A stretch of 64,000 nt of DNA. It comes from Candidatus Bathyarchaeota archaeon BA2. Lineage in GTDB: Archaea; Thermoproteota; Bathyarchaeia; Bathyarchaeales; Bathyarchaeaceae. Positions 34,249 through 55,119 of the stretch are shown one piece after another (position 1 is the stretch's first letter; each line of letters starts with the position of its first letter). The notes under the pieces were generated by a model. The model was not told where the DNA came from. It was given only the letters and a program-made list of their open reading frames with translations, and did not search any database. The position numbers and the translations under genes are program-made. The DNA lies in assembly GCA_001399795.1 (NCBI GenBank), contig LIHK01000056.1:89873-153872 (forward strand). Reading direction: 5' to 3'.

Positions 34249-34752
34249 TTATTCCTCGCCCCCCAAAAAATCCATCCGAATGACCGGAGGGCGCTTCCCT
34301 ACTCTATCTTCAGCCGTCTCTTTGCGTTTGCTGAATCTTCCAATTTTAGTGCTAAATCCGTAGGGGAAAGTTTCATTACAAACGTCCTTTATTTTGTCCA
34401 CTTCATCGATTTCGGCTGCTTCAATCCAAAATTTAGAAACTTGAATTTTAAGTGGAATAATTTTTCCGGCTACATCGATTTTTGTTTCATAGTAAACTCG
34501 AGGGCCCTGCATCGTTATTTGAGTGATTCCCATTAATTTCTGCATTTTCCGCAGAAATTTAGCTACAGTCTCTGCGCTCGGTAGGCGGTGGGGAAAAATC
34601 TCAATTTCAGGTTTAAAGGGAAGCCCCCTTGCATGTTCCTTGGCTTCCATGAAGCGTTTCTCTTCAAGAGCTTTTTCTAAAATTCTATAAACTTTCTCAA
34701 AAGTTCTCTGAGCGTTTTCCTTTGCATCAGGTTTCGACTTAATGGTGCTCAT
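34249..34752 (-). CDS. mcrD: Methyl-coenzyme M reductase operon protein D
   Basis: EIEIFPHRLPSAETVAKFL...GPR...IPLKIQV...FPYGF..KIGRF follows the McrD pattern. Start taken at the Met forming an ATGA overlap with the upstream gene. Confidence 0.75.
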   Translation of the reverse strand: MSTIKSKPDAKENAQRTFEKVYRILEKALEEKRFMEAKEHARGLPFKPEIEIFPHRLPSAETVAKFLRKMQKLMGITQITMQGPRVYYETKIDVAGKIIPLKIQVSKFWIEAAEIDEVDKIKDVCNETFPYGFSTKIGRFSKRKETAEDRVGKRPPVIRMDFLGGEE

Positions 34753-35714
34753 GCAGATATCCCACCTTTGTGGTTCCACTGAGAATTAATTAACTCCAAC
34801 TCTTTTAACCTTACGTATGATTTGGGATAAAGCTTTATTAAAATGTAGTTTTTCATCATAGACCTCCTTACCTCAGCAACATCCTCTAATATGTAATTGC
34901 CAACTCTAATTTTTTTAATAATTGAGGCAAACTTATCGTACCGCAATTTGACTCTCACTCCATCAAGTTGGGGGACGATGGGCGCTGGTGAATAGCAAGT
35001 TTTAACTTCTTCTATCTGTTTTTCGATTTCACTTTTAAGTATGAAAGGTGAAGTTATCAGGGGGTCTGCCGCTATCATTTCTCGTCGCCCATCTAGACAT
35101 TTTCCAACAGCTTTAGCTAATTCATCTAGCTTCCTTATTTCGCTTAGAAATCTGGTTCTATAGGGAATTCGGCCTATCCCACTGATGTATGCAGATGCGT
35201 AGGGGACATGGTCCAATTTAGGGCCGCCTGCCACGATAACTGGTATCCGTAAATCCTTATAGAGCTTCCACTTATGCTCTAGGAGGCAATAATCAAAATT
35301 TCCAAGAAGAAATACAGCGGCATCGTGTTCCTCTATCAGCGTTTTTTCTCTCCTTGTTATTTGCGCGACGCGTTGACCAACCCCCCTTGCGAGACCAATA
35401 ATGTTAGTCTTAGCTCCCATTCTCCGAAGATACTCTGCGATGTCGCATGCGGGGTGGGGAAGATGATGTCTGGTTATGGTGGGGGAAACTACGGCAATTT
35501 CAGATCCTACAAGTGGGATTTCTCTAAGTCTAGCTCTAAGTTCAAGAACTAGTTTTCTTAGCGTTGGGGTATCTTCCTCGGGAATGATGAATGTGATTGT
35601 TGCCTCTTGTGCAATGATTCTTACATTAAGGATAGAGCCTCCAAGATCTTCTACTAGTTCAAGGAGCTCTCGATGCCTATAGGCTTCCCCCTCAAATATG
35701 AATCCATTATACAT
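34749..35714 (-). CDS. mmp7: Methanogenesis marker protein 7-like
   Basis: 321 aa; size and position in the mmp cluster between the mmp17-like gene and mcrD. Confidence 0.55.
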   Translation of the reverse strand: MYNGFIFEGEAYRHRELLELVEDLGGSILNVRIIAQEATITFIIPEEDTPTLRKLVLELRARLREIPLVGSEIAVVSPTITRHHLPHPACDIAEYLRRMGAKTNIIGLARGVGQRVAQITRREKTLIEEHDAAVFLLGNFDYCLLEHKWKLYKDLRIPVIVAGGPKLDHVPYASAYISGIGRIPYRTRFLSEIRKLDELAKAVGKCLDGRREMIAADPLITSPFILKSEIEKQIEEVKTCYSPAPIVPQLDGVRVKLRYDKFASIIKKIRVGNYILEDVAEVRRSMMKNYILIKLYPKSYVRLKELELINSQWNHKGGISA

Positions 35715-36411
35715 CGTGCATCAAGTCATTGATTGGTTTCTTCCATGGTTTGTATATTTCTTCAGTTTTCTTAGGCTCTCTTTTAATTTCTTCAAACATT
35801 TCTGGCGGTATGGGCTTTGGTGGCTGAGCTAAGGTGGCTTTAACAATTTCAATCCATTCTTCCTGAATTGGATTTTCTGAGGTTATTATTGTTAGGCCGC
35901 TAGCCTCAGGTAAGAGGTGTTCTATCCTAAATGCTTCTGGAATAATTCTAGTTATTGCATCCAATATTTTTTCCATCATCTTTTCCCTCGGATCTGCAAC
36001 GATTACATTTTGAAGTTCATTTATGGTGGTTAGGTTGCGTGGAATGACGGTTTCCCATCTGTCAATTTGGGCGACATTATTTTTTCCAAAGGAGTTCCAA
36101 AGGACTTTTAACAGTTCAGGCGCGTATGTTTCGTCGTGGATTATAATGTGAATGCCATCCGTCCCCTCCTCTAGACGGGCGTAGTCTTTCATTCTGATTG
36201 GTTGACGTGGAAGACTAAGCTGGACTGAAACTGCAAAGAGGGGCTTCTTTATATCTATTAACACCCTCATCTGCTGGATTGCCTGTCCGATGACTAAATC
36301 ACTAAGTATGTACTCAGCAATAATTTTGTAAATTAAAATGCCAAAATCATGCTGGCACGTTTCATCAAGAGATTCTACAAAAATTTTCTCAGACAAATGA
36401 CAATCTCCCAA
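35707..36411 (-). CDS. mmp17: Methanogenesis marker protein 17-like
   Basis: 234 aa; assigned from its position between mmp15 and mmp7, not from a recognised motif. Confidence 0.45.
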   Translation of the reverse strand: MGDCHLSEKIFVESLDETCQHDFGILIYKIIAEYILSDLVIGQAIQQMRVLIDIKKPLFAVSVQLSLPRQPIRMKDYARLEEGTDGIHIIIHDETYAPELLKVLWNSFGKNNVAQIDRWETVIPRNLTTINELQNVIVADPREKMMEKILDAITRIIPEAFRIEHLLPEASGLTIITSENPIQEEWIEIVKATLAQPPKPIPPEMFEEIKREPKKTEEIYKPWKKPINDLMHDV

Positions 36412-36414
36412 ATG

Positions 36415-37635
36415 TTAAACGATTCCGGAGACTAGAAGGGCAGCTCCGACTGCCCCTCCATATTGAGGCATTTTTGGAACTAATATTTTAATTCCTAGAA
36501 TAGACTCCATTGCTTTAACGAGACCTGGAACAAGGGCTGTACCCCCAACTTCGATGATGGGTTGCCTTAAATCTATCTCCTGCAGTTGTGTCTCAAAAAC
36601 TTGTTGTGCTACACTATTGCAGGCAGCAGCAGCAACATCCTCTGCTAAACTTCCCCTAGCAAGAGCTGATACAAGATCTTGGATGCCAAAGATGGAGCAA
36701 AAGCTATCCATCCTAACTTTTTTATGGTTTCCCTTTAAAGCAAGCTCCCCTAACTTCGCAACATCTATGCCAAGCCTGGAAGCGGCTATTTCTAAAAATC
36801 TGCCAGAGGCTCCGGCGCATAGACCTCCCATGGTGAAGTTGTCTGGAATTCCATTGAGGAGGGTCATTACTTTGTTATCTAGTCCCCCTACGTCTATTAC
36901 GGTTGCCTCCCCCTTTTGCTTATTTGACATGAAGGCTGCACCTTTCGACGCAACAGTCAGTTCTTCTTGAATCAGGTCTGCGTTGAGTTTGCTTCCAATT
37001 AGATGCCTCCCATAACCCGTGACCCCCATTCTATGATTCCAATCGGCAGGAAGTCCAGCATTTTTCAAAGCTTCTTTCTTCACTTTTTCGGCTGACTTAA
37101 ATATGTCAGTTGTGGGGGCCCAACTTGCTCCAATTACCTCATTGTTTTCCATTACTACAGCTTTAGTCATGGATGAGCCTGAGTCAATACCCAAGGTTAG
37201 CCCCTCCTGTCTCTCGCGAGCTAAAAGAGACTTTCTCTCCACTATTGTAGCTAAAGCTTCCATTCTTGTTAGAAGTTCACCTAATTTCGGCTTTTCTGTG
37301 AAAGAATACATAACTAATGGTAACTCTGTTTTTTTCTGTAGATATTTTCTTAATGCATGTTTAGTGAGAGCTCCTTCACCACATCTAAAACATGTAACCA
37401 TGAAGATGGCGTCAGCCTCTGAAGGATCATCAATAATCGATTTTGCTCTTGCAATCATCAATTTTAGGTTTGGGCTTTCAACATCTAACCCAAATTCTTC
37501 AACTGATTTCTTGATGGATTCTAAATCAACTTCGGGGAAGACGAGTTTTGCCCCAATCATATCAGCCGCTTTTTCTAACTCTCCTTGAACGCCACTCCAC
37601 TCGGTTCCACAAGAAATTTGAGCAATCTTTATCAT
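36415..37635 (-). CDS. mmp15: Methanogenesis marker protein 15-like (BadF/BcrA/HgdC-type ATPase domain)
   Basis: 406 aa; [21 protein letters not shown] and [11 protein letters not shown] acetate/sugar-kinase-fold phosphate motifs in the C-terminal half. Confidence 0.7.
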
Positions 37636-37669
37636 GGGAAACAGTCCTTTAAACAGATCTTAATCAACA

Positions 37670-38110
37670 TTATGGTTTACTTAGATTCTTAAGGAAGTCA
37701 ACTATTTTCCTCACCATCACCTCAGCATTTTCCACGGTTGATGGATACTCAACTTTCAAAATTGGGATTTCCTTCTGTCCAAGTAGATATTTAACTAAAA
37801 TATTTGTCCGAGCGCACCCGGAGCAACCGAAGGCGAAGTCTGCGTTTTCTATGATAACGGCGGCTTCAGCTTGATCTATAAGCGGACCTAATATTCCCAT
37901 TCTACCTCTAATTCCGGATGGAGTTTCAACCGCCACATACCTTAACCCTCGAATAAGCTCTTCCTCGCTCACATTGAGAGGAGGACTATCAATTTCAGGT
38001 GTAGTAACTTTTTTCCTAATTTCCTCCATAATTACAATGGGTTCATGACCGAATCTTTCTACTAGATCTGCTAAAATTAAACTATTTGGAGGAAATACGA
38101 AGACCTTCAT
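37670..38110 (-). CDS. mmp5: Methanogenesis marker protein 5-like
   Basis: [24 protein letters not shown]...GCSGCARTN; about 146 aa; ATGA overlap with the upstream gene. Confidence 0.55.
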
Positions 38111-38553
38111 GATCTCCTTGCCCATCCATGTTTCTTAATTAGCTTTCTAATCATCTGAATAGGAACTATTTTCTCTTCTGGAGGCTTTGCAACTATGACT
38201 TTTTCTTTCGCTTCCAATGATTCAAGAGCAGCTCCTATTAAAGGGAGCAGTTGATGTTCAAATTCTATAAAGTGGAGGCCTGGTCTTGGGCCTCCACCCT
38301 TACTGGCTCGACATATTCGAATATCCCCGGGGGGATAGGCTCGAACTTTAGAAAAAATGTGATGTTTATCGACCTCCCCGATTTTTTGAAGCAACTCCTT
38401 TACCGCATTTTTCTTCCCTTCAACGATTAGGCCGAAACATGTTTCCTTCATTTTCAGCGTTAACTTTTGACTTATTAAATACTGGTAAAGGAGGGGTGGC
38501 GTGAGATCTGAATTTGGGGAAATTACAAATATACGCGCTTCTGTTTCCTTCAT
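38107..38553 (-). CDS. mmp6: Methanogenesis marker protein 6-like
   Basis: 148 aa; [12 protein letters not shown]...[19 protein letters not shown]; 4-nt overlap with the upstream gene. Confidence 0.55.
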
Positions 38554-40103
38554 TCACATTTTTCCTCCATAAAGTAAATGGTATCCCCTGCATTTTTGTT
38601 TTTTAATAAATCAAGGTCTCCAATTATTCTTCCAATTATATTTGTAGCTTCAAAAGGCTCCCCGGTTGGTCCATAGGTTTTGCTTGCTTTAAGTCTGATA
38701 CCTATTAATCCGCTGAGTTTTTTGCGGGAATTGGTAACCCCTATTGTCCCTTCTTCAACTGTATTCGATGGGGTTGTTTCAACAGATACGGATTTAATGG
38801 TCTTAATATTTCCGGGGCCTGAAAGTATCAGTGCCTCCCCAGTATTTTCAAATACATGAAGTTTACCGATTGGTGAATAAATCATGTCCGCTACCATTCT
38901 AAAGTGTAGGACGCTTCGAGGAGACTCCTCATCATGCATGTTTATATGATTGATAAATTTTGGGTTAACCCCTAGAGTGACTACAGACCCCTGGCCCTTC
39001 ACTTCCATGGTTAATTTGGGACGCTGTTCGATGATTATTGCCTGATCATTTTCATCCCCAACCCGAATATGCCTGATTCTCCGCTGAGATAAATAGTTGG
39101 CAGCTTGCCCCTGACTCATTCCCACCACCATAAGGCGTTCAGGGGTTGTTTTCACCAAGATTTTGTCACCTGGGTTTGCATGTTCCACTAACTCGACCCC
39201 ATGAACTACACTCCCCACAACGCTGTGGGATGAAGTAAAGGGGGCATCGTTTCGATAAATATAGATAGCTCCCACTTTGGTGCCTGTGTTTCTAACAGTG
39301 ATTGCCCCCTTAGGCCTGTAACCTGTATTTTCCTTTGGTAGGGGTATTCCAACGAATTTTTCATTGCAAATGAACATGCTACTTGCATGGCTCACCTTAA
39401 AAAAATCCCCAACGGTTGCTAAGAAATGTTCAGCACAGTTTGAGGTTCTCTCATCAAGGGTTGCTTTAACGTAGGTTAAAATTTGTATGTTGTCTTCTAC
39501 TGTTTTCTCCCCGATTTCTTCAGGTCTCAAAACCAATACTTTCCTACCCTCGATAGTTGATGGATATATGCGCAAAATCGAGTCGCCTCTTTCCAATTCC
39601 AAAATAACGTGGCCCCCACTAATTACTCTCCCAATTATTCCCCAATTCTCCTTCGGGGCCCCATAGACTCCTTCATGGTCCACCCAACTGAAGCATATGT
39701 AGGAAAAAGCTGGATCGAATCCTCCAAAGCTTAGAAAAACATCCCAACAATGATATTTAATCTTCTCCTTGGTTGCCTTAAGCCCTGAATGCGAGAGGTC
39801 TATTGAGCCAAATGTAACTGCCTTTTTGGTAATCCACCCAAATTCAACTCCCTGAAAATCTTGGTAATGCTTTAACCAGAAAGGGAGAAGGGAATCTTCT
39901 ACTCTAATAGAGAATTTCCCTTTGGGGGTTTCTATGAAAAAGTCTCTAGGCAGGTGAGGTTCTGAAATCGATTCTCCTCCTCTTTTTATAGCAATTATTT
40001 TGCAATCCTTTGCGTAAGGTGCTTTAATAATGTTTATAGCATCGAGAATGGTTGATTTTTCATAAACCTCTAGTTTTTCCCCGTTAACCTCTATTTTGAT
40101 CAT
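38550..40103 (-). CDS. mmp3: Methanogenesis marker protein 3-like
   Basis: About 517 aa from the Met at 40103 (MIKIEVNGEKLEV); first gene of the cluster; size matches the family. Confidence 0.55.
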   Translation of the reverse strand: MIKIEVNGEKLEVYEKSTILDAINIIKAPYAKDCKIIAIKRGGESISEPHLPRDFFIETPKGKFSIRVEDSLLPFWLKHYQDFQGVEFGWITKKAVTFGSIDLSHSGLKATKEKIKYHCWDVFLSFGGFDPAFSYICFSWVDHEGVYGAPKENWGIIGRVISGGHVILELERGDSILRIYPSTIEGRKVLVLRPEEIGEKTVEDNIQILTYVKATLDERTSNCAEHFLATVGDFFKVSHASSMFICNEKFVGIPLPKENTGYRPKGAITVRNTGTKVGAIYIYRNDAPFTSSHSVVGSVVHGVELVEHANPGDKILVKTTPERLMVVGMSQGQAANYLSQRRIRHIRVGDENDQAIIIEQRPKLTMEVKGQGSVVTLGVNPKFINHINMHDEESPRSVLHFRMVADMIYSPIGKLHVFENTGEALILSGPGNIKTIKSVSVETTPSNTVEEGTIGVTNSRKKLSGLIGIRLKASKTYGPTGEPFEATNIIGRIIGDLDLLKNKNAGDTIYFMEEKCE

Positions 40104-40353
40104 GCGTGTTCTAAGATAGAAAATGGATGAATAATAGAAAAAGGTTGTGGGCACTGACACAATCTAGCTGAATTGAACATTTCCATGCTTTAACGGGGAA
40201 GTCGATGCTGGCGAGGTACTGTGAGGCTGGTGTTAGAAGCAGGGTTGTTATGTGTAGCTTAGTGATAGTTGATACAGACTGTAACTAATACAAACCTTTT
40301 TATTTTTAGACTCTGATTTACATACTCACGAAATAAGGTTTATAACAGTTAAA

Positions 40354-41799
40354 GTGATGAAGATGCCCGAAAAAATCATTCTGAGATTGTTGGAAGATGC
40401 TGTTGGAAAGGAAAACGTATCTGATGATGAAAGCATTTTGATTGCTTACTCCAGGGATCAATATTGGAACTTTGTTCCACCTAAAATGCCTGATTATGTT
40501 GTGAGACCAAAAAATACCGAAGAAGTTCAGGCTGTAATGCGTATCGCAAACAGATATCGCATCCCTGTTATCCCGATGAGTAGTGGAGTAAACGTCCGAG
40601 GACTCTGCATTCCGGAGCAGGGTGGAATCGTCCTTGAATTGAAAAGGATGAATAGAATTATTGAAATAAACAAGGATGCTATGACTGCCACGGTTGAGCC
40701 AGGCGTTACAATGGTCGAATTCGTAGCAAGTGCTAGGAAACTCGGCCTCAGGCCTGCAGTCCCGGGCGCCCCTGCTGTGGTCTCGCCAGTATCAAATTAC
40801 ATGCTAAGAGGGGTTTATCATCATATTTCTTCCATTGGAATCGATCATGTTCTTTCGATGGAAATAGTTCTGCCGAATGGCGAACTTTTATACACTGGTT
40901 CAGCAGCCTTCCCAAATATTGGTCCGTATTCAAGATTTGGATTTGGTCCAGATCTCACAGGTCTTTTCATGGGTCAGCCAGGAACGATGGGTGTTGTAAC
41001 AAAATTGACTTGCCGTATGTATCCGCTTCCTGAGGCTGAGGAGTGGCTTGGAGCCGGGTTCAATGATCTGAGTAAAGCTGTAAAATTTGTGGATGAATTA
41101 ATGACTGAAAAGCTGTTGGCAAGCTGCTGGTTGCTACACTGGTCTGTTCCCTTAATTACGATGGCGCCTTCACGCGATCTTCAAAAACTTAGGGAGGATG
41201 TGCTTGGGGGATGCGAATGGTTTATAAACCTAACATTCGAGTCGAGCAAAGGCCTCATAGACTATAAGAGAAAAGCCGTTGAAAAGATTGTTCAAAAGTA
41301 TAAACCCGACCTTATCGGAGGGCCGCTCCCCATGGAAGTGGGACCAATAAAGAATGAATGGATGTATCCGAGAAGGATATTTAATTGGTTTAAGTTCGGA
41401 AATTACTTCGCACTAGCCTTCTGGGGACCACTAACTAAATTTGAAGAATATCACGATTTAGGCCTTAAGTTCTGGAAAAAACATGGGCTTGACCCCGAGA
41501 AATTTTCAATTATAGCCGCGCCAACCGAGCCTTATTGCGGTAAACTTAGTTACATAGAAATGGAATGTTTTTACGACTCAACAAACCGAGCTGAGGCTGA
41601 ATCACTGACCGCATTTACATCAGATATGACGAATGAACTTATAGAACTTGGGATATATGGATGGTTTAGGCCTTACGCATTGGCAGTGAAAGCTTCACTT
41701 GGTAAACTTAAGGGAAATTATGTAGAGCTTTGGAAGAAGATTCACGACATTATTGATCCAAATAATACAATGAATCCTGGCAAGCTTTGGCCAGTTTAG
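40354..41799 (+). CDS. FAD-binding oxidase, GlcD/VAO family (copy 2)
   Basis: PDYVVRPKNTEEVQAVMRIANRYRIPVIPMSSGVN, TATVEPGVT, DPNNTMNPGK; paralog of 31271-32680. Confidence 0.8.
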   Translation: MMKMPEKIILRLLEDAVGKENVSDDESILIAYSRDQYWNFVPPKMPDYVVRPKNTEEVQAVMRIANRYRIPVIPMSSGVNVRGLCIPEQGGIVLELKRMNRIIEINKDAMTATVEPGVTMVEFVASARKLGLRPAVPGAPAVVSPVSNYMLRGVYHHISSIGIDHVLSMEIVLPNGELLYTGSAAFPNIGPYSRFGFGPDLTGLFMGQPGTMGVVTKLTCRMYPLPEAEEWLGAGFNDLSKAVKFVDELMTEKLLASCWLLHWSVPLITMAPSRDLQKLREDVLGGCEWFINLTFESSKGLIDYKRKAVEKIVQKYKPDLIGGPLPMEVGPIKNEWMYPRRIFNWFKFGNYFALAFWGPLTKFEEYHDLGLKFWKKHGLDPEKFSIIAAPTEPYCGKLSYIEMECFYDSTNRAEAESLTAFTSDMTNELIELGIYGWFRPYALAVKASLGKLKGNYVELWKKIHDIIDPNNTMNPGKLWPV

Positions 41800-43007
41800 G
41801 AGGTGTCGTGAGCATGCAAGGTTTAAGGGATTTAGAGAAATGGCGTAAATTCTCGTATTTATGTGCCCATTGCCGTTGTTGCTCCGCGGCGGATTATCAT
41901 ACGTTAGGAGAATATATGCAGATATGCCCTTCCGGAACATACTTTGGATTTGAAAGCTACTTTTCATCTGGCAAAATGGAAGTCATTCGTGGTTTGATAG
42001 AGGGACTGATTTCGAAACCATCAGAAAAACTACTCGAAATAGTTTATGTCTGTACCTTATGTGGTGCTTGCGAAAAAAACTGCGAGGAATTCACTCTGTT
42101 AGGAGAAGACTCTGGAGGCTTGACGCACATCTTTGAGGATGCTAGAGCCTTCCTCGTAGAAAGTGGGTGGGGGCCACTTGAGAAACATAAAGAGTTTGCC
42201 AGTAGCATCAGAGTTAATCACAATCCATACTTAGAACCGCATGAAAAAAGAGAAAGCTGGACAGAAAAAAGTTCGTTAAGAAAAGGGTCTCTGGTTTATT
42301 TCACAGGCTGTACTTCGTCTTATAGACAGAAGGAAGTGGCGAAGGCTACTGTTAAAGCATTGGAAGCAATGGAAGAAAAATTTGTGATAATGGGTAGCGA
42401 AGAATGGTGTTGTGGTTCTCCGCTTTTGAGGACAGGACAGATAGATCAGATAACTGAACTGGCTGAACATAATGTAAAAGCCTTAAAAGAAATAGGGGCT
42501 AAAAAAGTAATAACTTCTTGTGCAGGTTGCTATAGAACTTTAAAAAGCGAATACCCAAAAATATTAGGCGCACAACCAGACTTTGAAGTGGTGCATTCTT
42601 CTCAATTTTTTGCGGGGGCGCTTGACAAAAATAAATTGAAGCTCACTAAAGATGTTGATGCTACGGTTACCTACCATGATCCATGTCACCTGGGCAGGCA
42701 TATGGGCGTGTACGACGAACCGAGAAATCTTCTTAAAAAGATTCCAGACCTAAAACTGGTGGAAATGCCTAGGAGCCGACAAAATAGTTGGTGTTGTGGT
42801 GCGGGAGGCGGCGTCAAATCTGCGTTTCCAGATTTTGCGACATCAACAGCCGTTGAGAGATTGAGGGAGGCTGAGGCAATTGGAGTTAAAAAAATAGTGT
42901 CGATGTGTCCCTTTTGCAAACATAACCTCACAGACGCAGCCAAACTACTTAAGAACAAATTCGAAGTCTACGATGTTGTAGAGCTACTTTCAAAGGCAAT
43001 AGGCTAA
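41787..43007 (+). CDS. HdrD/GlcF-like Fe-S protein with two CCG domains (copy 2)
   Basis: CAHCRCCS, CTLCGACEKNC, EWCCGSPLLRTG, SWCCGAGGG, CPFCKHN; roughly half the residues are identical to copy 1 by eye. Confidence 0.75.
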   Translation: MASLGGVVSMQGLRDLEKWRKFSYLCAHCRCCSAADYHTLGEYMQICPSGTYFGFESYFSSGKMEVIRGLIEGLISKPSEKLLEIVYVCTLCGACEKNCEEFTLLGEDSGGLTHIFEDARAFLVESGWGPLEKHKEFASSIRVNHNPYLEPHEKRESWTEKSSLRKGSLVYFTGCTSSYRQKEVAKATVKALEAMEEKFVIMGSEEWCCGSPLLRTGQIDQITELAEHNVKALKEIGAKKVITSCAGCYRTLKSEYPKILGAQPDFEVVHSSQFFAGALDKNKLKLTKDVDATVTYHDPCHLGRHMGVYDEPRNLLKKIPDLKLVEMPRSRQNSWCCGAGGGVKSAFPDFATSTAVERLREAEAIGVKKIVSMCPFCKHNLTDAAKLLKNKFEVYDVVELLSKAIG

Positions 43008-43087: not shown

Positions 43088-43546
43088 ATGCCTTTAATTG
43101 GAACTAAAAAATGGTTTGAGGCTACTACAAAAGCTTGGAATTCTGACCCTGACAACGTAAAAAGCATGGCAGAAGTACAGGAATCAATTCTCTTGGTTGT
43201 AGATGATCCACCCATAAAGGGGTTAAGAGAGAAAGTAGAAAGCGATGTAATAGACCCTGAAATTTTGAAACGGATGGAAGCTGAGAATAGAGCGGAGTTA
43301 ATTCTCAACATTGAGGATGGCCAAATCAAGGAGTTTAGATTTGCTAGACCCGATGATAGACCTACGGTTATCTTGAGTGGGAAATACGAAGAATTCGAAA
43401 AGGTTGGGAAGGGGGAGGCTGAAACCGTCTGGCAAATTTTAGATGCAAAAGTCAAGTTTAAAGGCGTATTACCTAGATTCGCTACATATATAGATGAGTA
43501 TACTAAACTCTGGCAAATTATAATAGCGAATACAGAGGTTCCTTAG
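43088..43546 (+). CDS. SCP2 (sterol/lipid carrier)-like domain protein
   Basis: GTKKWFEATTKAWNSDPD..., PTVILSGKYEEFEKVGKGEAETVWQILDAKVKFKG follows the SCP2 C-terminal pattern (G-x-l-d-p..A...GK+k.kG). Confidence 0.55.
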   Translation: MPLIGTKKWFEATTKAWNSDPDNVKSMAEVQESILLVVDDPPIKGLREKVESDVIDPEILKRMEAENRAELILNIEDGQIKEFRFARPDDRPTVILSGKYEEFEKVGKGEAETVWQILDAKVKFKGVLPRFATYIDEYTKLWQIIIANTEVP

Positions 43547-43559
43547 GAGATTAAGCAAA

Positions 43560-45032
43560 ATGGAAGAAATCGGTTTAGAGGAAAAATTTGAAATAGAAAA
43601 AGTAAAATGGGAGAAGACTTTGGAGGAAATGGGCCTTGACAAAATCTGGAAGAAGATGGTAGCAATAACCCCATTCCCTGGCAAAACCCCGATGTTTGCT
43701 GAAGTATGGTTTGTCATGCCTTTTACGCGGAATTTTTTCAGAGAAGTTGGCATAAATCCCGAACTCTGGCAAAGGCTGAAGTATGAAAATTTTGTCGAAT
43801 GGTCGTACCGCGTGGATCGAGCCGTTGAAACATCCGACCGCTGCATGAAAGAAAAGATCCCTAAGGAAGAGATCTACTGGACCAAAAACCTATGCTACTT
43901 GAGCCATCCACCCGCATATCTATGTAGACCTGATGTCGGGAAATCCTCTTGCGTAGCGCTTTACGGAAAATACGCGACATGTGAATACGTGCATGTAGAC
44001 GATTTTACTAGGGAGGTCTACTGGGTCAACGGCTACCATAACGAAGACGGGATACCCGTTCATAGGTGGACTGTTGGAGCGGATGAAAACATAAGCAAAT
44101 ATTTCGATGCGGAGGATGATGTAGCGTTCACGCAAAGCACGGCTGAGCATACCGCACCAGCCAGCAGGAAGGAACTGGACGAAAGGCTAGATAGGAGACA
44201 CCTCCGAACCGGGATAAAGATTAGGGATGCTCCTAAAAAACACTGGGATCCATATGATTGGGGGATGGCTGTGCGCGATGTGATCACTGACCTTAGAATT
44301 GAAAGCTTTCCCAAGTGGGTCCATGCGACACTATACATGTCTTGTGTTTCAATGATCTCTAGCACGATAGCCCAAAGCGTGCTAACTAGCTCCGAATTTT
44401 TCATTTACGTGTATTACGGGCTTAACACCACAGCTCTGGGTATCAACTACAATTTATTTTCATACGTGCCCCTCCCGCCCATGATCAGAGTCCTCATCGG
44501 TCTACCTCAAGAAACATTTGTCAAGCGCATGAGTCAACTCTTTCTAGGCGGTTATGATGCATTCCACAGGTACACATGTAAAGAGAAGAAAATCCCAAAT
44601 CTCTTCAAACTGAAGAGATACACGTTTGAACACGGGCAGTTCTTCCCACACTACAAGGGAATACCCCCACCCATGGTTATAGCTCGTGCTATCCCACCCT
44701 CTCTCCAAAAGATCAATTTGAAACAATTCTTGGAGACGCCTCCAAGCAAGGAGTTTTGGGAAATCCTGGAGAGTGAAGCAAGGGCGAATCGTGAGACAGG
44801 TGAAATCCCACCGGCGGATGAGACCGGTAGGATGTATTTCCTATTAGACCCATCGATAGAGCCACTTAAAGCCAAAGACTTCCCCCCGATGGACTTCAAT
44901 GAGGGACAGATTTGGCCATTCGACATCACCCGGGAGAAGGTTGAAATTATGGTCGAAGAAGGGTACGATGGATCTGGAAGGAATATAGAGTATTATAGCG
45001 AACTTGCAAACAAAAAAATGGGCAAAAAATAG
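43560..45032 (+). CDS. Orphan 490-aa protein of unknown function (Cys-rich segment plus central hydrophobic region)
   Basis: Long uninterrupted ORF 14 nt after the SCP2-like stop. It has 5 Cys within CMKEKI..CYLSHPPAYLCRPDVGKSSCVALYGKYATCEYVH. No family recognised. Confidence 0.6.
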   Translation: MEEIGLEEKFEIEKVKWEKTLEEMGLDKIWKKMVAITPFPGKTPMFAEVWFVMPFTRNFFREVGINPELWQRLKYENFVEWSYRVDRAVETSDRCMKEKIPKEEIYWTKNLCYLSHPPAYLCRPDVGKSSCVALYGKYATCEYVHVDDFTREVYWVNGYHNEDGIPVHRWTVGADENISKYFDAEDDVAFTQSTAEHTAPASRKELDERLDRRHLRTGIKIRDAPKKHWDPYDWGMAVRDVITDLRIESFPKWVHATLYMSCVSMISSTIAQSVLTSSEFFIYVYYGLNTTALGINYNLFSYVPLPPMIRVLIGLPQETFVKRMSQLFLGGYDAFHRYTCKEKKIPNLFKLKRYTFEHGQFFPHYKGIPPPMVIARAIPPSLQKINLKQFLETPPSKEFWEILESEARANRETGEIPPADETGRMYFLLDPSIEPLKAKDFPPMDFNEGQIWPFDITREKVEIMVEEGYDGSGRNIEYYSELANKKMGKK

Positions 45033-45091
45033 ATTAAAAGCCGTTAAAGAGTTCTTTGCAGCATCCCCGTACATTATTAGACTTTAACTCG

Positions 45092-45583
45092 CTACGGGGC
45101 TCCAAGAGACCATGCGGAGGGCCTTCCACTTCTCGGTCGTCCAGCAGCCACATCGAAAATGTCTTTTAAATCCATCGCTGCAGCTATGTTCCCTTTTATA
45201 TCACCTCTGCCACTAAAGAATGCTGACATTATATCTATTTCCCCGATCATAGACCTGGCGAGGTCGTAATACTTGAGCGTGAGTACTAAATCGGGCTCCT
45301 CACCCTCTGGTTCCCCTGGCTTCATCGAGACAGGGGCAAACATTAGGGTGAGAGGTTCGATTCCACGTTTCGGGTGCTCCGCCCTAATTACTATTAACCT
45401 AGGTGGAATTTGGGCTGCAATATCTAGCGCCTCTGGAGTTATCATAACTTTCCCGATAGTAAATCCATACATTAATTCTTCAAACATGGGTTCTTTTTCA
45501 TGTGCTTTCAGCCATTCTACTTTTTTCCACCATCCATCGGGTAACTCTTTATATTCAGCTTCTTCCGACGACAAACAAATCAC
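45092..45583 (-). CDS. SCP2-like domain protein
   Basis: DLVLTLKYYDLARSMIGEIDIMSAFFSGRGDIKGNIAAAMDLKDIF is a classical SCP2 C-terminal motif; divergent from mcrA. Confidence 0.65.
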   Translation of the reverse strand: MICLSSEEAEYKELPDGWWKKVEWLKAHEKEPMFEELMYGFTIGKVMITPEALDIAAQIPPRLIVIRAEHPKRGIEPLTLMFAPVSMKPGEPEGEEPDLVLTLKYYDLARSMIGEIDIMSAFFSGRGDIKGNIAAAMDLKDIFDVAAGRPRSGRPSAWSLGAP

Positions 45584-45676: not shown

Positions 45677-47500
45677 TTGGAGGAGAAAGAAGAAAGAAAA
45701 AAGTTTTATGACGATAAAGGTCAAATAACGGCTAGAGAGCGCGATTACGTAAGGGAACTCTACGCTGTATCCAAAAAGTTCCTTCCAACCGAAAGAAGAA
45801 GAGCAATCTACTCTAGATTAGAGAAGCAATTTGGCGCAGACCCCCTCAGCCTTGTGGATTCAGAAATGTATAAACGGGGTGGGTACAGGCAATCAAAACG
45901 TAAACAAGAATTCGTTAAGTCGGGTCGACAAATTGCCATAGAAAGAGGCATACCAGCCTATAATCGAGCTGTTGGAATTCCTCTAGGTCAAAGAATTCTT
46001 GAACCTTACGTAATCACTGGGACTGATATTACAGTAGAACAGGATGATACTCATCATGTTAACAATCCAGCCATCCAACAGATGGTGGACGACATCAAGA
46101 GAACCACAATAGTCAACATCGACATCGCCCACAGAATGCTTCAAGTAAGGGCTGGAAAAGAAGTAACTCCGGAAACAATCAACCTCTACTTAGAAACCCT
46201 TAATCATACTATGTGCGGTGGCGCCGTAGCCCAAGAACACATGTCCGAGATTAATCCCTTGCTGGTGAAAGACGCGTATGCTAAGGTGATTACTGGAAGC
46301 GACGAAATTAAAGACGCTCTAGACAGAAGGTACGTCATTGATATTGACAGACTTTTTCACCCAACCAGGGCGGAGCAACTGAAGAAAGCCCTTGGCAACA
46401 GCATCTGGGTGGTTCTTAGAACCCCGACAATAGCGATAAGGATGGCTGATGGTGACGAGGCTCATAGGTGGGCTGCTATGCAGAACACGATGGCTTTTAT
46501 CGGATCCTACGGCCTTTCGGGAGAACACGTAGTTTCCGACCTAGCCTACTCCTTCAAGCACGCCAGAGTTGTAAACATGGGTAACAAAATGTGGTACCAA
46601 AGAATGCGCGGAAGGAATGAGCCCGGCGGCTTCCCAGACGGCTACATATGCGACTTCATCCAATCCGAGCGAGACCTACCGGCAAGACCTTTCTTGGAAG
46701 TTTCAGAGGAGGATCCGGAAGAGGCTAAGAAATATTCCCGTGCTATGTACGAAGGTATCGGCGCAATCGCAGCAGTTCTTGACAATATGATATGGCTGGG
46801 ATTCTACATGAGTGGCGGTATAGGATTCTCAAACACGGTATCCGCTGCAGGTCTCGCAGGAGGCGTAATAGAAGATATCACAGAAGAGCTTATTGAAACG
46901 ACCCACAGATATATCCGAGGTATAAAGAAGGTACCACCAAAATGGGATATTGTCAGATTCATAGTCGATATGATCATACAGTACGTGATGGAATCTTATG
47001 AAAAGTTCCCAGCATTGTCCGAATTCCATTGGGGAGGAGCCCATAAGGTTTCAATCATAGGTAGTATGGGTGCTGGTGTGGCTTCACTTCTCACAGGTAG
47101 TTCAACAATGGGCATGTGGGCTGGCCACTATGCTATAGCGCTGGTTATGAAAGAGGGGTGGTTGAGAACTGGATGGGCTGGACAAGAAATCCAGGATCAC
47201 ATAGGTTTGCCGAGCCTATGTAGCTTTAGGCCTGAAGAAGGCAATTTCGCGGAATTAAGAGGTCTTAACTACCCGATGCAATCATTCAGCGCAGCCCATG
47301 GTTCTCTAAGGGATGCAGCTATATATGGAGCAATGATAGGAAGAGGTTCAGCATGGAGTGCCAGTCCAGTGGTTAAGGTAGCTTTCGCTGATCCGCATCT
47401 GGTCTTTGACTTCAAGAATCCAAGATTATGCATTGCGAAAGCGTGTATAAAGCAATTCATGCCAGCCGGAGAAAGGGGCCCGTCGCTCCCAGCGCATTAG
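45677..47500 (+). CDS. mcrA: Divergent methyl/alkyl-coenzyme M reductase alpha subunit (ACR-like McrA)
   Basis: 607 aa; GGYRQSKRKQEF, ERGIPAYN, GKEVTPETINLYLE, MRGRNEPGG, YMSGGIGFSNTVSAAG, ELRGLNYP, FMPAGERG align with McrA landmarks. TTG is the only start candidate after the in-frame stop at 45635. Confidence 0.9.
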   Translation: MEEKEERKKFYDDKGQITARERDYVRELYAVSKKFLPTERRRAIYSRLEKQFGADPLSLVDSEMYKRGGYRQSKRKQEFVKSGRQIAIERGIPAYNRAVGIPLGQRILEPYVITGTDITVEQDDTHHVNNPAIQQMVDDIKRTTIVNIDIAHRMLQVRAGKEVTPETINLYLETLNHTMCGGAVAQEHMSEINPLLVKDAYAKVITGSDEIKDALDRRYVIDIDRLFHPTRAEQLKKALGNSIWVVLRTPTIAIRMADGDEAHRWAAMQNTMAFIGSYGLSGEHVVSDLAYSFKHARVVNMGNKMWYQRMRGRNEPGGFPDGYICDFIQSERDLPARPFLEVSEEDPEEAKKYSRAMYEGIGAIAAVLDNMIWLGFYMSGGIGFSNTVSAAGLAGGVIEDITEELIETTHRYIRGIKKVPPKWDIVRFIVDMIIQYVMESYEKFPALSEFHWGGAHKVSIIGSMGAGVASLLTGSSTMGMWAGHYAIALVMKEGWLRTGWAGQEIQDHIGLPSLCSFRPEEGNFAELRGLNYPMQSFSAAHGSLRDAAIYGAMIGRGSAWSASPVVKVAFADPHLVFDFKNPRLCIAKACIKQFMPAGERGPSLPAH

Positions 47501-48013: not shown

Positions 48014-48583
48014 TTAGGCTTTAAACCGTTTAGTCAAGCTCGTCATTACCGGAACTAATTTTATTCCTGTCGCCAAATCTCCTTCCAGTTTGAACTGACC
48101 TGCTATGTATCCCTTAACTGGATCAACATCACCTATCAACAGTCCTATCAAAGTCTTCGCATCTGACGAAACCTTGAGATCAGGGGCATCCAAAAGGGCT
48201 GAGCCACCAGAAATTTTTCCACCACTCAGTTTAAAATGACCCTTTAAGGGGCTGTCGGTGGCTTCAAAGTTAACCTTTATTTCCCCTGCATTTACCACTT
48301 TTTTCTTAACTTCCTCGTCTTTCTCAACGAGTATGCCTACACCTTCCCACAAAACGTCCGTGAATGCTGCTGATGCTTCAGGTGCCTCGGTCACGAATTT
48401 TCTAACGTCGATCGATCTTAAGTTATTTACTAACCTCAATGCTAAATCCGGCATTGCCTCCATCAGGTTTCCAACGCCAAATGCTTTTACTCTCTCCACT
48501 AAAGGAGGGAGAGCAGTTTTCAGCTCATTTTCTGACATCTTGAGCGCTTTGTCTACGTCTTTCTTCAATTCTTCCGCACTCAT
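48014..48583 (-). CDS. SCP2-like domain protein (189 aa)
   Basis: DLKVSSDAKTLIGLLIGDVDPVKGYIAGQFKLEGDLATGIKLVPVM is an SCP2 C-terminal motif. Confidence 0.7.
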   Translation of the reverse strand: MSAEELKKDVDKALKMSENELKTALPPLVERVKAFGVGNLMEAMPDLALRLVNNLRSIDVRKFVTEAPEASAAFTDVLWEGVGILVEKDEEVKKKVVNAGEIKVNFEATDSPLKGHFKLSGGKISGGSALLDAPDLKVSSDAKTLIGLLIGDVDPVKGYIAGQFKLEGDLATGIKLVPVMTSLTKRFKA

Positions 48584-50214: not shown

Positions 50215-51969
50215 TTGTCCCTTAAATGGGTGACTTTAATCATGACGCGTAGAGACACCGCAGTTCGGGTAGTTAATTTATCTAAAAGCTATACTCTCGA
50301 GTGTGGGGAGAAAGTTCGAGTTCTAGAAAATATCTCCTTTAATCTTTATCGAAACGAAATTTTAGGATTTATTGGCAGAAGTGGTGGGGGTAAAACAACA
50401 CTTATCCGAGTGCTTAGGGGTGTTGAGCCCTTTGATGAGGGGGAAATTTGGATTAACAATGTTCACCTCACTCCTAAGGCATCAGAAGATGATATAAGGA
50501 AAGTTCGCGAAACAACTGCCATACATCTTCAACGCTCTTTTGGCCTTTGGGCGGCAAGCACCCTAGAAAATGTGATGAGACGACTATATGCCTTAGAGAC
50601 AGGAGACGAAACTGCTCCACTCCCATACGACGAGTCCGACTATAGGAGACTTGAGGAGGAGAGTATGAGGATACTTAAAGCAGTAATGTTAGCTCAAAAA
50701 GCTAATCATCCCGCACATACGCTAAGCGGCGGGGAAAAGCAAAGACTGGTGTTGGCAAGGCAACTTGCAATGGCCAGCCGAAAGCCAATAACATTACTAT
50801 TAGACGAGCCTGTTACAATGTCTTGTCTGGCAACAAAACAAGTAGCCTTGGACTGGATTAAAAAAATACGGGATCAACTTGACGTATCCATAATTATTGC
50901 TTCCCATCTCCCCTCCATCCTCAAATATCTAGCGGATAGGGCGATTTGGCTGGAAAAGAAGATTATTGCAGTTGGCAAACCCAAGGAGATCATCGACAAA
51001 TTTCTCGCCCAAATGGAGGTACCCGTAAGTTTGAAAACCGTACCTAGATCTAAAAAGAAGATCATTAAGGTTCAAGACTTAACCCAAAGCTACCGTGCTG
51101 AAATATCTGAGGATTCATTTGAAATGAAAAACTTGAATTTTGAGGTTTACAATGGGGAAATCCTAGTTATAATTGGTCCATCTGGAGTAGGAAAAACTGT
51201 TTTAATTCGTTTACTCTCAGGATTGGAGCTTCCTGAAAAAGGTAAGGTACTTTATAAGCTGGAAAATAAAAGGGTGAACATCGCAAAATTAGGCTATGAA
51301 GCCGTGATGACCCGTAGAAGGATCGGCGTGGTTCATCAAGAATTAGATTTGGCCTACGGCGCTACAGTCAAGGATTTAGCTTTGGCGAGGCTTGGATTAA
51401 AGGGTGAAAAAGCGTTAATTATGGCCAAAGAAAAGGCGAAGGAGTTGGGGTTGAAGGAGGAGATTGTGGATTCTATCTATCGGTTGTGGGATTACCCAGA
51501 ACGGGAAATGATTAAAAAATTTGAGAAACTGGGATTAGAAAAAGAGGTGGTAAAGAGTCTTTTCCCAATTGCCCCCTGGGAAGCCGTATCAGAAATGTTT
51601 GAACCGATGTTTAGACTATTCAATTTATCACCCGATCTGTTAAATAGGAAATCTCACGAATTGTCGGGTGGGGAGAAAATAAGAGTTGCCATCGCTCTAG
51701 AACTCCTCTCTAGGCCAGAGGTCCTCTTTTTAGATGAACCTTTCGGTGACTTAGATCCGATAACTCTTAGAAACTTGTCAAACGTTCTAAAGTTTGTCAA
51801 CAATGAGTTTAATGTAACCATAGTCCTTGTGAGTCATCATGTGGATTTTGTTAAGGAAGTTGCCCATCGAGCAATACTCATGAGGGAAGGAGAAATAGTG
51901 GAAGAAGGAGACCCGATAAAACTTTGTGAACGCTTTATCGGGGAAAGCCAAGCTCAGTTTATTAACTAA
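50215..51969 (+). CDS. Double-ABC ATPase, component-A2-like paralog (lacks the Zn-ribbon insert)
   Basis: Two ABC cassettes: GRSGGGKTT / LSGGEKQRLVLARQL / LLLDEP and GPSGVGKTV / LSGGEKIRVAIALEL / LFLDEP. The A2-like IIASHLPSILKYLADRAIWLE is present. Confidence 0.65.
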   Translation: MSLKWVTLIMTRRDTAVRVVNLSKSYTLECGEKVRVLENISFNLYRNEILGFIGRSGGGKTTLIRVLRGVEPFDEGEIWINNVHLTPKASEDDIRKVRETTAIHLQRSFGLWAASTLENVMRRLYALETGDETAPLPYDESDYRRLEEESMRILKAVMLAQKANHPAHTLSGGEKQRLVLARQLAMASRKPITLLLDEPVTMSCLATKQVALDWIKKIRDQLDVSIIIASHLPSILKYLADRAIWLEKKIIAVGKPKEIIDKFLAQMEVPVSLKTVPRSKKKIIKVQDLTQSYRAEISEDSFEMKNLNFEVYNGEILVIIGPSGVGKTVLIRLLSGLELPEKGKVLYKLENKRVNIAKLGYEAVMTRRRIGVVHQELDLAYGATVKDLALARLGLKGEKALIMAKEKAKELGLKEEIVDSIYRLWDYPEREMIKKFEKLGLEKEVVKSLFPIAPWEAVSEMFEPMFRLFNLSPDLLNRKSHELSGGEKIRVAIALELLSRPEVLFLDEPFGDLDPITLRNLSNVLKFVNNEFNVTIVLVSHHVDFVKEVAHRAILMREGEIVEEGDPIKLCERFIGESQAQFIN

Positions 51970-53526: not shown

Positions 53527-55119
53527 TCAAAATCCAGTTGAAATCAAAGCCTTTTTCTCTGTTTCCACCATGATGTTTACAACATCTTCCGGGTCGCCAA
53601 TAGTTTCTATTTTACCATTTCTCATGTAAGCAGCTCGATCGCACGCTATCCTGATGAAGTCAATATCATGGCTTATGATTAAATATGTTTGCCCTAAAGC
53701 GTCTCTCGCGTTTCTAATGCTCCTCGCAATCTCAACCCGCGTTATTGGATCCGCAGTGCCAGTCGGCTCATCCAACAGCACGATCTTAGGTTCCTTCATA
53801 AGAGAACGGGCGATACATACTCTATGTCTTTCTCCCTCACTAATCTGGTCTGGATATTTGTAAAGCAAGTATTCTATTTCTTTATCTGTAAAGTTTACCC
53901 CCCTCAAAACCTCGTAGGCCTTTTTGGTCTTTTGTTCTTCTGGCAAGGGTTCTTCCACAGCGCCAACAAGGTTCTCTAGAATTATTCTTCCGGCGTGCAA
54001 CGTGTACTCTTGGTGTAGAATATCCATTTTTGATGCAATCATTCCTCTTTCATCAGGTCCAGGAATACTCATGTCAAACCATTCTTCTCCTCTCTTCACC
54101 AGTATTTTGCCAGTGGTTGTAGGCTTTATGCCCATCATCATGTGCGCCAACGTAGTCTTTCCGCTTCCACTAAGACCCACAATTCCGAATATTTCACCTT
54201 CATATATTTTAAGATCAACGCCGTCCACTGCCTTCACGAGACCTCTATCGAATGTGTAATACCATTTCTTTACACCCTCACACTCCATTATCGGGTTGGT
54301 TCCTCTATACCTTTCAACTTGCACTTTTTCCACTTTCTCCATAAAAGCATTGTAGACATCTTCGGATTTTCCCATCACAGTTAACTCTCCGTTTTCTAGT
54401 AGGGCAGCCTCTTCAGATAACGCTTTAATAGCTTCTGGCCAATGCGAGGTTATGACAAGAGTTATGTGATCCCTATTGACGGCTTCCCTAATCACTTCAT
54501 GCACCACTTCGCTGGTGATCGGGTCCAAGGTGCCTGTGGGCTCGTCTGCAAGGAAAAGCAACGGATTCCTCGCTAAGCACATGGAAAATATGACTCTTTG
54601 CTTTTCGCCTCCGGAGAGGTCTCTTCCCAGATGAAGAAGCCGATGATCCAGCTTGACATGTGATATAAGCTCCGCAGCCCTCATGTCAATTTCCCCCTCG
54701 GGGTATCCGACGCTGATCAAAATTCTTCTGACGTTTTCTATGGCTGGAAATTCGCTGTATAGAGAGAAGCCTCGTTGAGGCATGATCGCGATCCTGTCAT
54801 GTAGCGTCAAGGACAGTCTAGTTTGCTTCTTCAACTCCTCCCAGTAATCAACCTCTCTAAACTCCATCGTCGTGGAGCACTTGGGGCATGGTTCCTCCTT
54901 CTTGGAAGGATACTCGACCCAGTGACAGTTAGGGCAATATGAAAGCCTGAAGATAATTTGTCCGTATGTCGGTTCATATTCAAGGATTCCCCTAATTGAC
55001 TGCATGATAATAGATTTCCCGTGACCGCTTTTGCCTAGTAGTCCAAAGGTTCCCCCTTCCCTAATTGTGAATGATATGTTTTTGATTATGGGGAGCCCTC
55101 TGACGAACTCTTTTGTCAA
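53527..55119 (-). CDS. atwA: Methyl-coenzyme M reductase system component A2 (double-ABC ATPase)
   Basis: GKSGHGKSIIMQSIRGILEYEPTYGQIIF, Zn-ribbon insert CPNC...CPKC, DLSGGEKQRV, FLADEPTGTLDP, ITSHWPEAI, and a second cassette GLSGSGKTT. Confidence 0.8.
   Translation of the reverse strand: MTKEFVRGLPIIKNISFTIREGGTFGLLGKSGHGKSIIMQSIRGILEYEPTYGQIIFRLSYCPNCHWVEYPSKKEEPCPKCSTTMEFREVDYWEELKKQTRLSLTLHDRIAIMPQRGFSLYSEFPAIENVRRILISVGYPEGEIDMRAAELISHVKLDHRLLHLGRDLSGGEKQRVIFSMCLARNPLLFLADEPTGTLDPITSEVVHEVIREAVNRDHITLVITSHWPEAIKALSEEAALLENGELTVMGKSEDVYNAFMEKVEKVQVERYRGTNPIMECEGVKKWYYTFDRGLVKAVDGVDLKIYEGEIFGIVGLSGSGKTTLAHMMMGIKPTTTGKILVKRGEEWFDMSIPGPDERGMIASKMDILHQEYTLHAGRIILENLVGAVEEPLPEEQKTKKAYEVLRGVNFTDKEIEYLLYKYPDQISEGERHRVCIARSLMKEPKIVLLDEPTGTADPITRVEIARSIRNARDALGQTYLIISHDIDFIRIACDRAAYMRNGKIETIGDPEDVVNIMVETEKKALISTGF

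Follow-up and report, generated by a model that had tools for sequence, protein, structure and literature searches.

What part, if any, does a protein without a recognizable family play in archaeal alkane oxidation? Archaea that use alkyl-coenzyme M (alkyl-CoM) reductase (ACR) to oxidize alkanes, from ethane up to long chains, were discovered in the last decade. Culture papers have left the steps that lead from alkyl-CoM to acyl-CoA unknown (PMC10811742, PMC11297162, PMC10322722). In Candidatus Bathyarchaeota archaeon BA2, a 64,000-nucleotide stretch of contig LIHK01000056.1 (positions 89,873 to 153,872; "the window" denotes this whole stretch) is an island that carries nearly all of the ACR-related genes, and a short distance upstream of acrA it contains an open reading frame (ORF), designated X here, at 43560-45032 on the plus strand. 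Judged from sequence comparisons, X is the founding member of an ACR-linked family that has no known family assignment. We tentatively read it as an ACR accessory, for the reasons set out below.

The X gene and its family

X starts with ATG, contains no internal stops and encodes 490 amino acids (57.5 kDa, isoelectric point 6.0); the opposite strand has many stops. Its start lies 14 nt past the last base of the stop codon of a 152-residue gene at 43088-43546 on the same strand, called SCPup, and the 13-nt spacer contains a GGAG motif 9 nt 5′ of the X ATG. Given the GGAG in the spacer and a TATA-like element, TTTATAAA, 5′ of SCPup, SCPup and X look like one transcription unit. Comparison with a 74%-identical ortholog gave a nonsynonymous divergence (dN) of 0.17 and a synonymous divergence (dS) above 2.5 (dN/dS ∼0.07), and by this measure X is a real gene under strong purifying selection. 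The coordinates and the stop-free frame bear out a preliminary description of the locus, which had reported a long clean ORF 14 nt after the stop of the preceding gene.

The same description had placed X between a GlcD/HdrD module and an SCP2/mcrA pair, and the annotated neighbors agree. Pfam and NCBIfam identify a GlcD-like FAD dehydrogenase (40354-41799, plus strand) and an HdrD-like CCG/Fe-S protein (41787-43007, plus strand), a pair directly 5′ of SCPup-X. On the other side, an SCP2-family gene, SCP2a (45092-45583, minus strand; Pfam PF02036, 2.4e-8), is convergent with X and is kept beside acrA. Divergent from SCP2a is acrA itself (45677-47500, plus strand), which encodes a 607-residue divergent methyl/alkyl-coenzyme M reductase alpha subunit with MCR_alpha_N/C domains. 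ACR alpha subunits score below the curated cut-off for McrA; the acrA product scores 515 bits against TIGR03256, under the 768 required of true McrA, and is 74-77% identical to Hadarchaeota AcrA. A second SCP2-family protein, SCP2b (48014-48583, minus strand), is supported by Pfam (SCP2, 2.1e-6; Alkyl_sulf_C, 4.7e-4) and by synteny.

The X protein had no matches in Pfam (E≤0.01) or NCBIfam, and a profile of its family retrieved nothing from PDB sequences except a chance match at E 0.3, so the earlier statement that no family could be recognized stands at all three levels. Its description as an orphan does not, as a family was found. A word-based search of 5.8 billion proteins returned 24 close homologs of 81-36% identity, from Hadarchaeales metagenome-assembled genomes (MAGs) and Ca. 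Methanoliparum among others, all annotated "hypothetical". When 1.84 billion cluster representatives were searched exhaustively with a profile, 75 matches were obtained, comprising nine members of the long family (E up to 1e-30) and about 60 shorter proteins of 375-430 residues (E 1e-31 to 1e-10).

Long-family proteins have ∼490-580 residues. The distant short branch (∼375-430 residues), found in Helarchaeota and Syntropharchaeia MAGs, covers the N-terminal and central portions of X and is missing the last ∼120 residues; in a tree it stands apart from the long family. The latter divides into two clades, one containing the window's X, its orthologs and the Methanoliparia proteins, and the other the copies that lie within Hadarchaeota acr operons. 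At only 20-25% identity, both branches keep R84, P117, G136, H160, E162, G164, R212, R213, H214, G218, D244, R246, E248, P251, P304 and P306. The C-terminal part of the long family is also highly conserved (R424, D430, E434, Q450, W452, D455, E459, K460, E467 and Y469). The firm retention of this polar set points to binding of a specific ligand or to an active site.

Two further features of X had been pointed out, and both are present. Five cysteines are clustered as described, but among 23 homologs they are retained in 2 (C95), 16 (C112), 11 (C122), 8 (C131) and 4 (C141), and no cysteine column in the alignment is invariant; a metal cluster built on these residues is thereby ruled out. A central hydrophobic stretch likewise exists, but it is not a membrane helix: in the structural model described below it forms a buried strand and helices. 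The maximum Kyte-Doolittle mean over a 19-residue window is 1.2, there is no membrane-type segment, and the N-terminus is charged. The low hydropathy and charged N-terminus exclude a membrane protein; X is soluble and cytoplasmic. Neither a motif for cofactor binding nor a known catalytic motif was found in it.

By sequence the X family belongs to no known family, and by fold it offers a weak lead at most; its mode of working may resemble SCP2- or UbiJ-type substrate presentation. The database sources give its members no name, and no mention of X proteins or of a link between SCP2 and ACR was found in the literature searched, part of that searching having been too broad.

Occurrence and gene order in other archaea

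The distribution of X was determined in 185,579 species represented by one genome each and in three sets of archaeal genomes: 66 Hadarchaeota, 201 sampled from the window's own phylum and 401 sampled Halobacteriota. Because these genomes are related to each other and many are incomplete, the counts that follow are to be read as a pattern, not as a test in the statistical sense. Across the 185,579 species, members of the long family were detected in six Hadarchaeota MAGs, including the hexadecane-degrading S4B3_HD70, in Ca. Methanoliparum thermophilum and in three Ca. Methanolliviera, and in no other genome. Seven of the 66 Hadarchaeota carry X; McrA is present in six of these seven and in none of the other 59. 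The exception, G268, has X but no detectable McrA_N and is an incomplete 1.1-Mb MAG. Within the window's phylum, X occurs in the window's genome alone, and all 21 genomes in that sample with canonical McrA (at least 466 bits) are without it.

In Halobacteriota, the short-branch profile matched 12 genomes and an AcrA like that of the window (E up to 1e-150) was found in 11, with nine genomes having both. Two genomes have such an AcrA but no short-branch match; they contain fragments of long X at contig ends, and hence all 11 carry X or a short X-like gene. The three X-positive genomes without a strict AcrA match have AcrA-like genes of 41-49% identity, and in two of the three acrB-acrG stand beside the X-like genes. 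Overall, the long family and the short branch were found only in ACR archaea, namely Hadarchaeota, Methanoliparia, Syntropharchaeia, Helarchaeota and this Bathyarchaeon. Among the genomes surveyed, X is restricted to those with ACR, with the single exception of the incomplete G268, and its homologs are not widespread in archaea that lack ACR, the pattern that the preliminary description had proposed to look for.

Gene order follows the same lines. In Hadarchaeota, one copy of X lies inside the operon acrA-SCP2-acrB-acrG-X-acrA-SCP2, and in Halobacteriota the short form is found as acrB-acrG-X-X-acrA-SCP2; the order acrB-acrG-X-acrA is common to Hadarchaeota and genome G538. An X-like gene lies directly upstream of acrA, at most 3 kb away, in eight Halobacteriota genomes, and elsewhere the short form is divergent from acrBGA-SCP2. 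Orthologs of the window's X are arranged as SCPup-X followed by SCP2b on the opposite strand and the gene for aldehyde:ferredoxin oxidoreductase (AOR). In Methanoliparia, X adjoins SCP2b and AOR or forms the series X-ferredoxin-AOR with an acyl-CoA synthetase nearby, and relatives of SCP2b lie between X and AOR in both Hadarchaeota and Methanoliparia. A GlcD-like/HdrD-like pair is found beside X at one further locus (L006) and beside a short X-like gene at another (L042). The position of X in or beside acr operons is thus conserved across distant lineages, and the gene is retained in undegraded form in other ACR clusters, often inside the operon.

Hadarchaeota have five to eight X paralogs and a single acrG. 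The additional copies adjoin genes for acyl-CoA synthetase (translationally coupled at locus L026), Fe-ADH-type alcohol dehydrogenase, short-chain dehydrogenase/reductase (SDR), acyl-CoA dehydrogenases and a MacB-type ABC permease. In two Halobacteriota, acrB-acrG is immediately followed by five to six short X-like genes in tandem (L076, G593:C129; L077, G483:C246), which is a striking case of local amplification and diversification. In a Helarchaeota MAG (L043, 7655-8941 and 10858-11894), a short X-like gene is located ∼2 kb from a gene for a pyruvate-formate-lyase-like glycyl-radical enzyme; this enzyme class includes the fumarate-adding alkane activators.

A separate regularity concerns SCP2 itself. 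In almost all of the ACR clusters examined, from Hadarchaeota, Halobacteriota lineages and this Bathyarchaeon, an SCP2-family gene is located directly beside acrA (45092-45583 and 48014-48583 in the window, both on the minus strand; L007-L030, L067 and L069-L072 elsewhere). This acrA-adjacent SCP2 looks like a conserved second ACR accessory, and it is absent from the searched literature.

Predicted fold and partner

AlphaFold2, supplied with 23 homologs, predicted X as a single body with a mean predicted local distance difference test (pLDDT) score of 90.4 and a predicted template modeling score of 0.91; a model of the core alone (residues 55-345, 47 sequences) reached a pLDDT of 90.1. The fold appears new, in that the model is confident and no solved structure matches it convincingly. 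Searches of the ESM Atlas by shape gave template modeling scores below 0.3 for X, and searches by features gave no usable match for X or its C-terminal part. Leads returned there for a short relative (CLN5, TseH and IcsB-like) all scored below 0.9 and were not used, and a mixture of Foldseek matches to actin-like ATPases and LytR-CpsA-Psr (LCP) proteins (best E 0.14-0.16) was dismissed as noise.

Exhaustive structural alignment against 48,161 chains ranked one family at the top. With the full model the best seven matches (Z 4.4-3.5), and with the core the best eight (Z 5.6-4.4, root-mean-square deviation 3.4-4.7 Å), were all SCP2 proteins, from yeast, Archaeoglobus, Thermus, mosquito and human. 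The fold of SCP2 is a five-stranded sheet packed on helices, and the 104-118 aligned residues correspond to the whole SCP2 chain, which is matched by residues ∼70-340 of X. Next in rank were LCP proteins, the SCP2-type domain of the alkyl sulfatase YjcS, and UbiJ. An SCP2-like core that carries large insertions is therefore a lead consistent with the context of X, and not a family assignment. X differs from SCP2 in several respects: it is four times the size, owing to long insertions and 145 further residues at the C-terminus, it has no sequence or profile similarity to SCP2, its Z score is only 5.6, and its invariant charged residues are missing from SCP2 proteins.

Function in SCP2-type domains offers a point of comparison. 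Such domains, some of which are attached to enzymes (SCPx thiolase; the C-terminal domain of the alkyl sulfatases YjcS/SdsA1), present hydrophobic or amphiphilic substrates, for example alkyl sulfates, to enzymes, and alkyl-CoM is an amphiphile chemically similar to these. In the ubiquinone-synthesis metabolon, the lipid-binding accessory UbiJ and its small partner UbiK hold a hydrophobic intermediate for soluble enzymes. UbiJ-SCP2 (6h6n) is among the structural matches of X (Z 2.9-3.7) and serves as a working analogy, although it has no homology to X and belongs to another pathway in other organisms. LCP proteins, the second-tier matches of the core (Z 3-4), bind polyprenyl lipids but are extracellular bacterial phosphotransferases with no link to the context of X, and their match scores do not rise above noise.

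The genes around X include three of SCP2 type, and modeling supports binding of X to the product of one of them. SCPup had been called SCP2-like, a designation that Pfam does not support, with no match even at E≤10, but that profile-profile comparison does: hhalign to an alignment holding Pfam-verified SCP2 neighbors gave a probability of 89.6% (E 1.9e-6, 97 columns). A PDB profile search of SCPup lists SCP2-like-3 at E 0.25. SCPup orthologs precede X in its ortholog clade, and a related domain ends a 388-residue protein encoded in front of X in Methanoliparum.

Prediction of a complex with the SCP2 protein had been suggested as a check, and the predicted complex of X with SCPup passed its controls, with an interaction prediction score from aligned errors (ipSAE) of 0.70 (median of three runs) as compared with 0.00 for the best control. 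Of 80 solved complexes, 58 attained an ipSAE of 0.70, as did two of 110 mismatched pairs, counts that are rough when custom alignments are used. At least 91% of contacts are shared between the runs, with a pLDDT of at least 86 for SCPup. In the model, the last strand and helix of SCPup (112-136) contact residues 23-35, 363-364, 406 and 419-426 of X, adjoining the invariant R424. The PDB contains no relative from which the prediction could have copied this interface. Binding of SCPup by X is thus supported at the level of a model. In Syntropharchaeia, the gene before a short X-like gene (L044, 9645-9998) encodes a 117-residue, cysteine-rich protein (CxxxxxxxxxxxC...C...C) that is not SCP2-like. 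The small upstream partner therefore differs between the branches, and pairing with SCPup is not shared by the Syntropharchaeia one.

The surrounding island and the role of X

The remaining ACR subunit genes of the window, acrB (55550-56941; Pfam MCR_beta) and acrG (56943-57761; MCR_gamma), lie downstream of acrA on the plus strand. Family matches identify mcrD (34249-34779) and mcrC (34749-35714) in a minus-strand block (34249-40160) that also contains a BadF/G-type ATPase, two small ORFs and Mmp3. With two A2-like ABC ATPases (50215-51969 and 53527-55119, family matches), this block constitutes a compact reductase activation/assembly set adjoining the ACR genes. The island also encodes a B12-radical SAM enzyme and several AORs. 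A complete AOR gene (59349-61232, plus strand; Pfam AFOR_N/C), a recurrent neighbor of X in other genomes, is flanked by frames at 58366-59217 and 61566-62180 that hold an N-terminal or C-terminal part alone and are probably gene fragments or frameshifted copies. HdrD-like (CCG)/GlcD-like (FAD_binding_4) pairs occur twice (30051-32680 and 40354-43007) and may form a dehydrogenase module of the alkane pathway.

X and acrA each occur once in the host genome (1.46 Mb, 92.5% complete). The housekeeping protein Nop56, encoded at 43861-45078 of the contig that carries the window, shares 87-92% identity with its Bathyarchaeia counterparts, the AcrA, AcrB and AcrG of the window are 74-80% identical to Hadarchaeota versions, X is likewise closest to Hadarchaeota, and three genomes of the same family have neither mcrA nor X. 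Because Nop56 is Bathyarchaeia-like, AcrABG are Hadarchaeota-like and close relatives lack both acrA and X, the island, with X, appears to have been shared horizontally between Bathyarchaeia and Hadarchaeota. Horizontal sharing of Acr itself was suggested earlier (PMC10811742). The DNA of the window is present in a 2015 "hydrocarbon metagenome"; the data sets listed as containing it are two DNA sets, which may be the source of the assembly, and no RNA set was among them.

Sharing of an island raises the question of whether X is simply a passenger, as linked genes travel together between Bathyarchaeia and Hadarchaeota, or perhaps a regulator with no direct role in alkane oxidation. This is very improbable: linkage to acr genes is kept where X is only 20-45% identical and gene orders differ, the gene is under strong purifying selection, and the protein has no DNA-binding domain.

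We consider it most reasonable, at a probability of roughly 45%, that X is an ACR-specific accessory that handles alkyl chains or alkyl-CoM together with SCP2 partners. A protein that couples ACR to the downstream oxidizing enzymes is the simplest reading of X because of its specificity for ACR, its SCP2 neighbors, the partner model, the location of its paralogs at long-chain enzymes and the resemblance of its core to SCP2. The SCP2-like alpha/beta domain of the core would hold a long alkyl chain, and the polar set R84, H160, E162, R212/R213/H214, D244, R246 and E248 would hold a charged head group, such as the sulfonate of alkyl-CoM. X and SCPup would collect either the ACR substrate, which is poorly soluble, or the ACR product, which resembles a detergent, and X would pass it between ACR and the GlcD/HdrD-like proteins, alcohol dehydrogenase, AOR and acyl-CoA synthetase. 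The presence of paralogs beside AOR, Fe-ADH/SDR, acyl-CoA synthetase and acyl-CoA dehydrogenases fits a protein that serves several long-alkyl enzymes. We infer both the binding of lipid or alkyl-CoM and the hand-over. In a review, Lemaire and Wagner proposed "hydrocarbon-carrier proteins" for the delivery of long-chain alkanes to ACR, without naming a candidate (PMC9118554); on this reading X would be a protein of that kind.

Several observations weigh against a role as an accessory carrier. Foldseek searches of the PDB with the full model and the core gave best E values of 0.14-0.16; the Z scores to SCP2 (maximum 5.6) are under the level of 8 regarded as reliable and do not suffice to establish a common fold; and comparison of the core of the X superfamily with SCP2 alignments by hhalign returned a probability of 0.1%, that is, no sequence-profile relation. 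To our knowledge, it is rare for a passive lipid carrier to retain His, Glu and Arg as invariant residues when identity falls to 20-25%, as it does in this superfamily. A catalytic site, or one for a specific ligand, would more often show such a pattern.

This last point leads to catalysis. X could be the missing enzyme, or its substrate-binding subunit acting with the GlcD-like and HdrD-like proteins, that converts alkyl-CoM to an alcohol or aldehyde and releases CoM, feeding alcohol dehydrogenase, AOR and acyl-CoA synthetase. Enzymes for the route from alkyl-CoM to acyl-CoA are undescribed (PMC10811742, PMC11297162, PMC10322722), X is the sole conserved unknown in clusters that contain ACR, AOR, Fe-ADH, acyl-CoA synthetase and GlcD/HdrD, and the His-x-Glu...Arg-His...Asp-x-Arg-x-Glu pattern kept in both branches could be a metal or catalytic site. 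The protein nevertheless has no cofactor-binding or known catalytic motif and no conserved cysteine, and no enzyme fold was matched to it. A single central enzyme would not usually have five to eight copies in a genome or form tandem arrays with five to six members, and paralogs stand beside enzymes that act later, such as acyl-CoA synthetase and acyl-CoA dehydrogenases. On balance we regard this alternative as rather doubtful. The specific proposal that X, alone or as the substrate-holding subunit of a complex with the GlcD-like and HdrD-like proteins, forms an aldehyde or alcohol from alkyl-CoM with liberation of coenzyme M, its active site being the His/Glu/His/Asp/Arg set, seems unlikely to us. 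Catalysis is no more likely than a role as carrier or adaptor. The preliminary description had named X a prime candidate for an uncharacterized step of the pathway; its ACR-linked distribution and gene order agree with this, but the evidence does not show that X catalyzes a step.

An ACR-specific counterpart of McrD and McrC, which would assist in the assembly, maturation or activation of ACR for example by handling a modified F430 or keeping the apo-enzyme open, was also considered. X lies between acrG and acrA much as mcrD and mcrC lie inside mcrBDCGA, and McrD and McrC are likewise not catalytic subunits (PMC9081873); the island that contains X has Mmp3, McrC, McrD, A2-like ATPases and the B12-radical SAM enzyme. 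X has, however, no Pfam match or sequence similarity to the McrD/McrC families (PF02505, PF04609), and it differs from them in occurring with ACR only, not being found in the canonical-MCR genomes sampled. Its copy number does not track that of ACR, and its predicted partner is SCP2-type, a family known for lipid binding. Since the genome already has McrC and McrD, and since most X paralogs are located away from ACR and beside lipid-oxidizing enzymes, a maturation role is less likely, and we hold it to be improbable. Replacement of McrD by X is ruled out by the presence of both McrD and McrC.

The proposed accessory role bears on a second puzzle besides the fate of alkyl-CoM, namely the route by which water-insoluble alkanes reach a cytoplasmic enzyme. 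X provides a concrete candidate: an unplaced family, a predicted fold without a convincing match, co-occurrence and gene order with ACR across four archaeal phyla, and a predicted SCP2-type partner. It also offers a second genomic marker for multicarbon-alkane metabolism that tells ACR from canonical MCR, and it is a likely missing ingredient for the expression of ACR pathways in other hosts. If X were to prove to be the alkyl-CoM enzyme, the gap between alkane activation and beta-oxidation would be closed in all multicarbon-alkane-oxidizing archaea.

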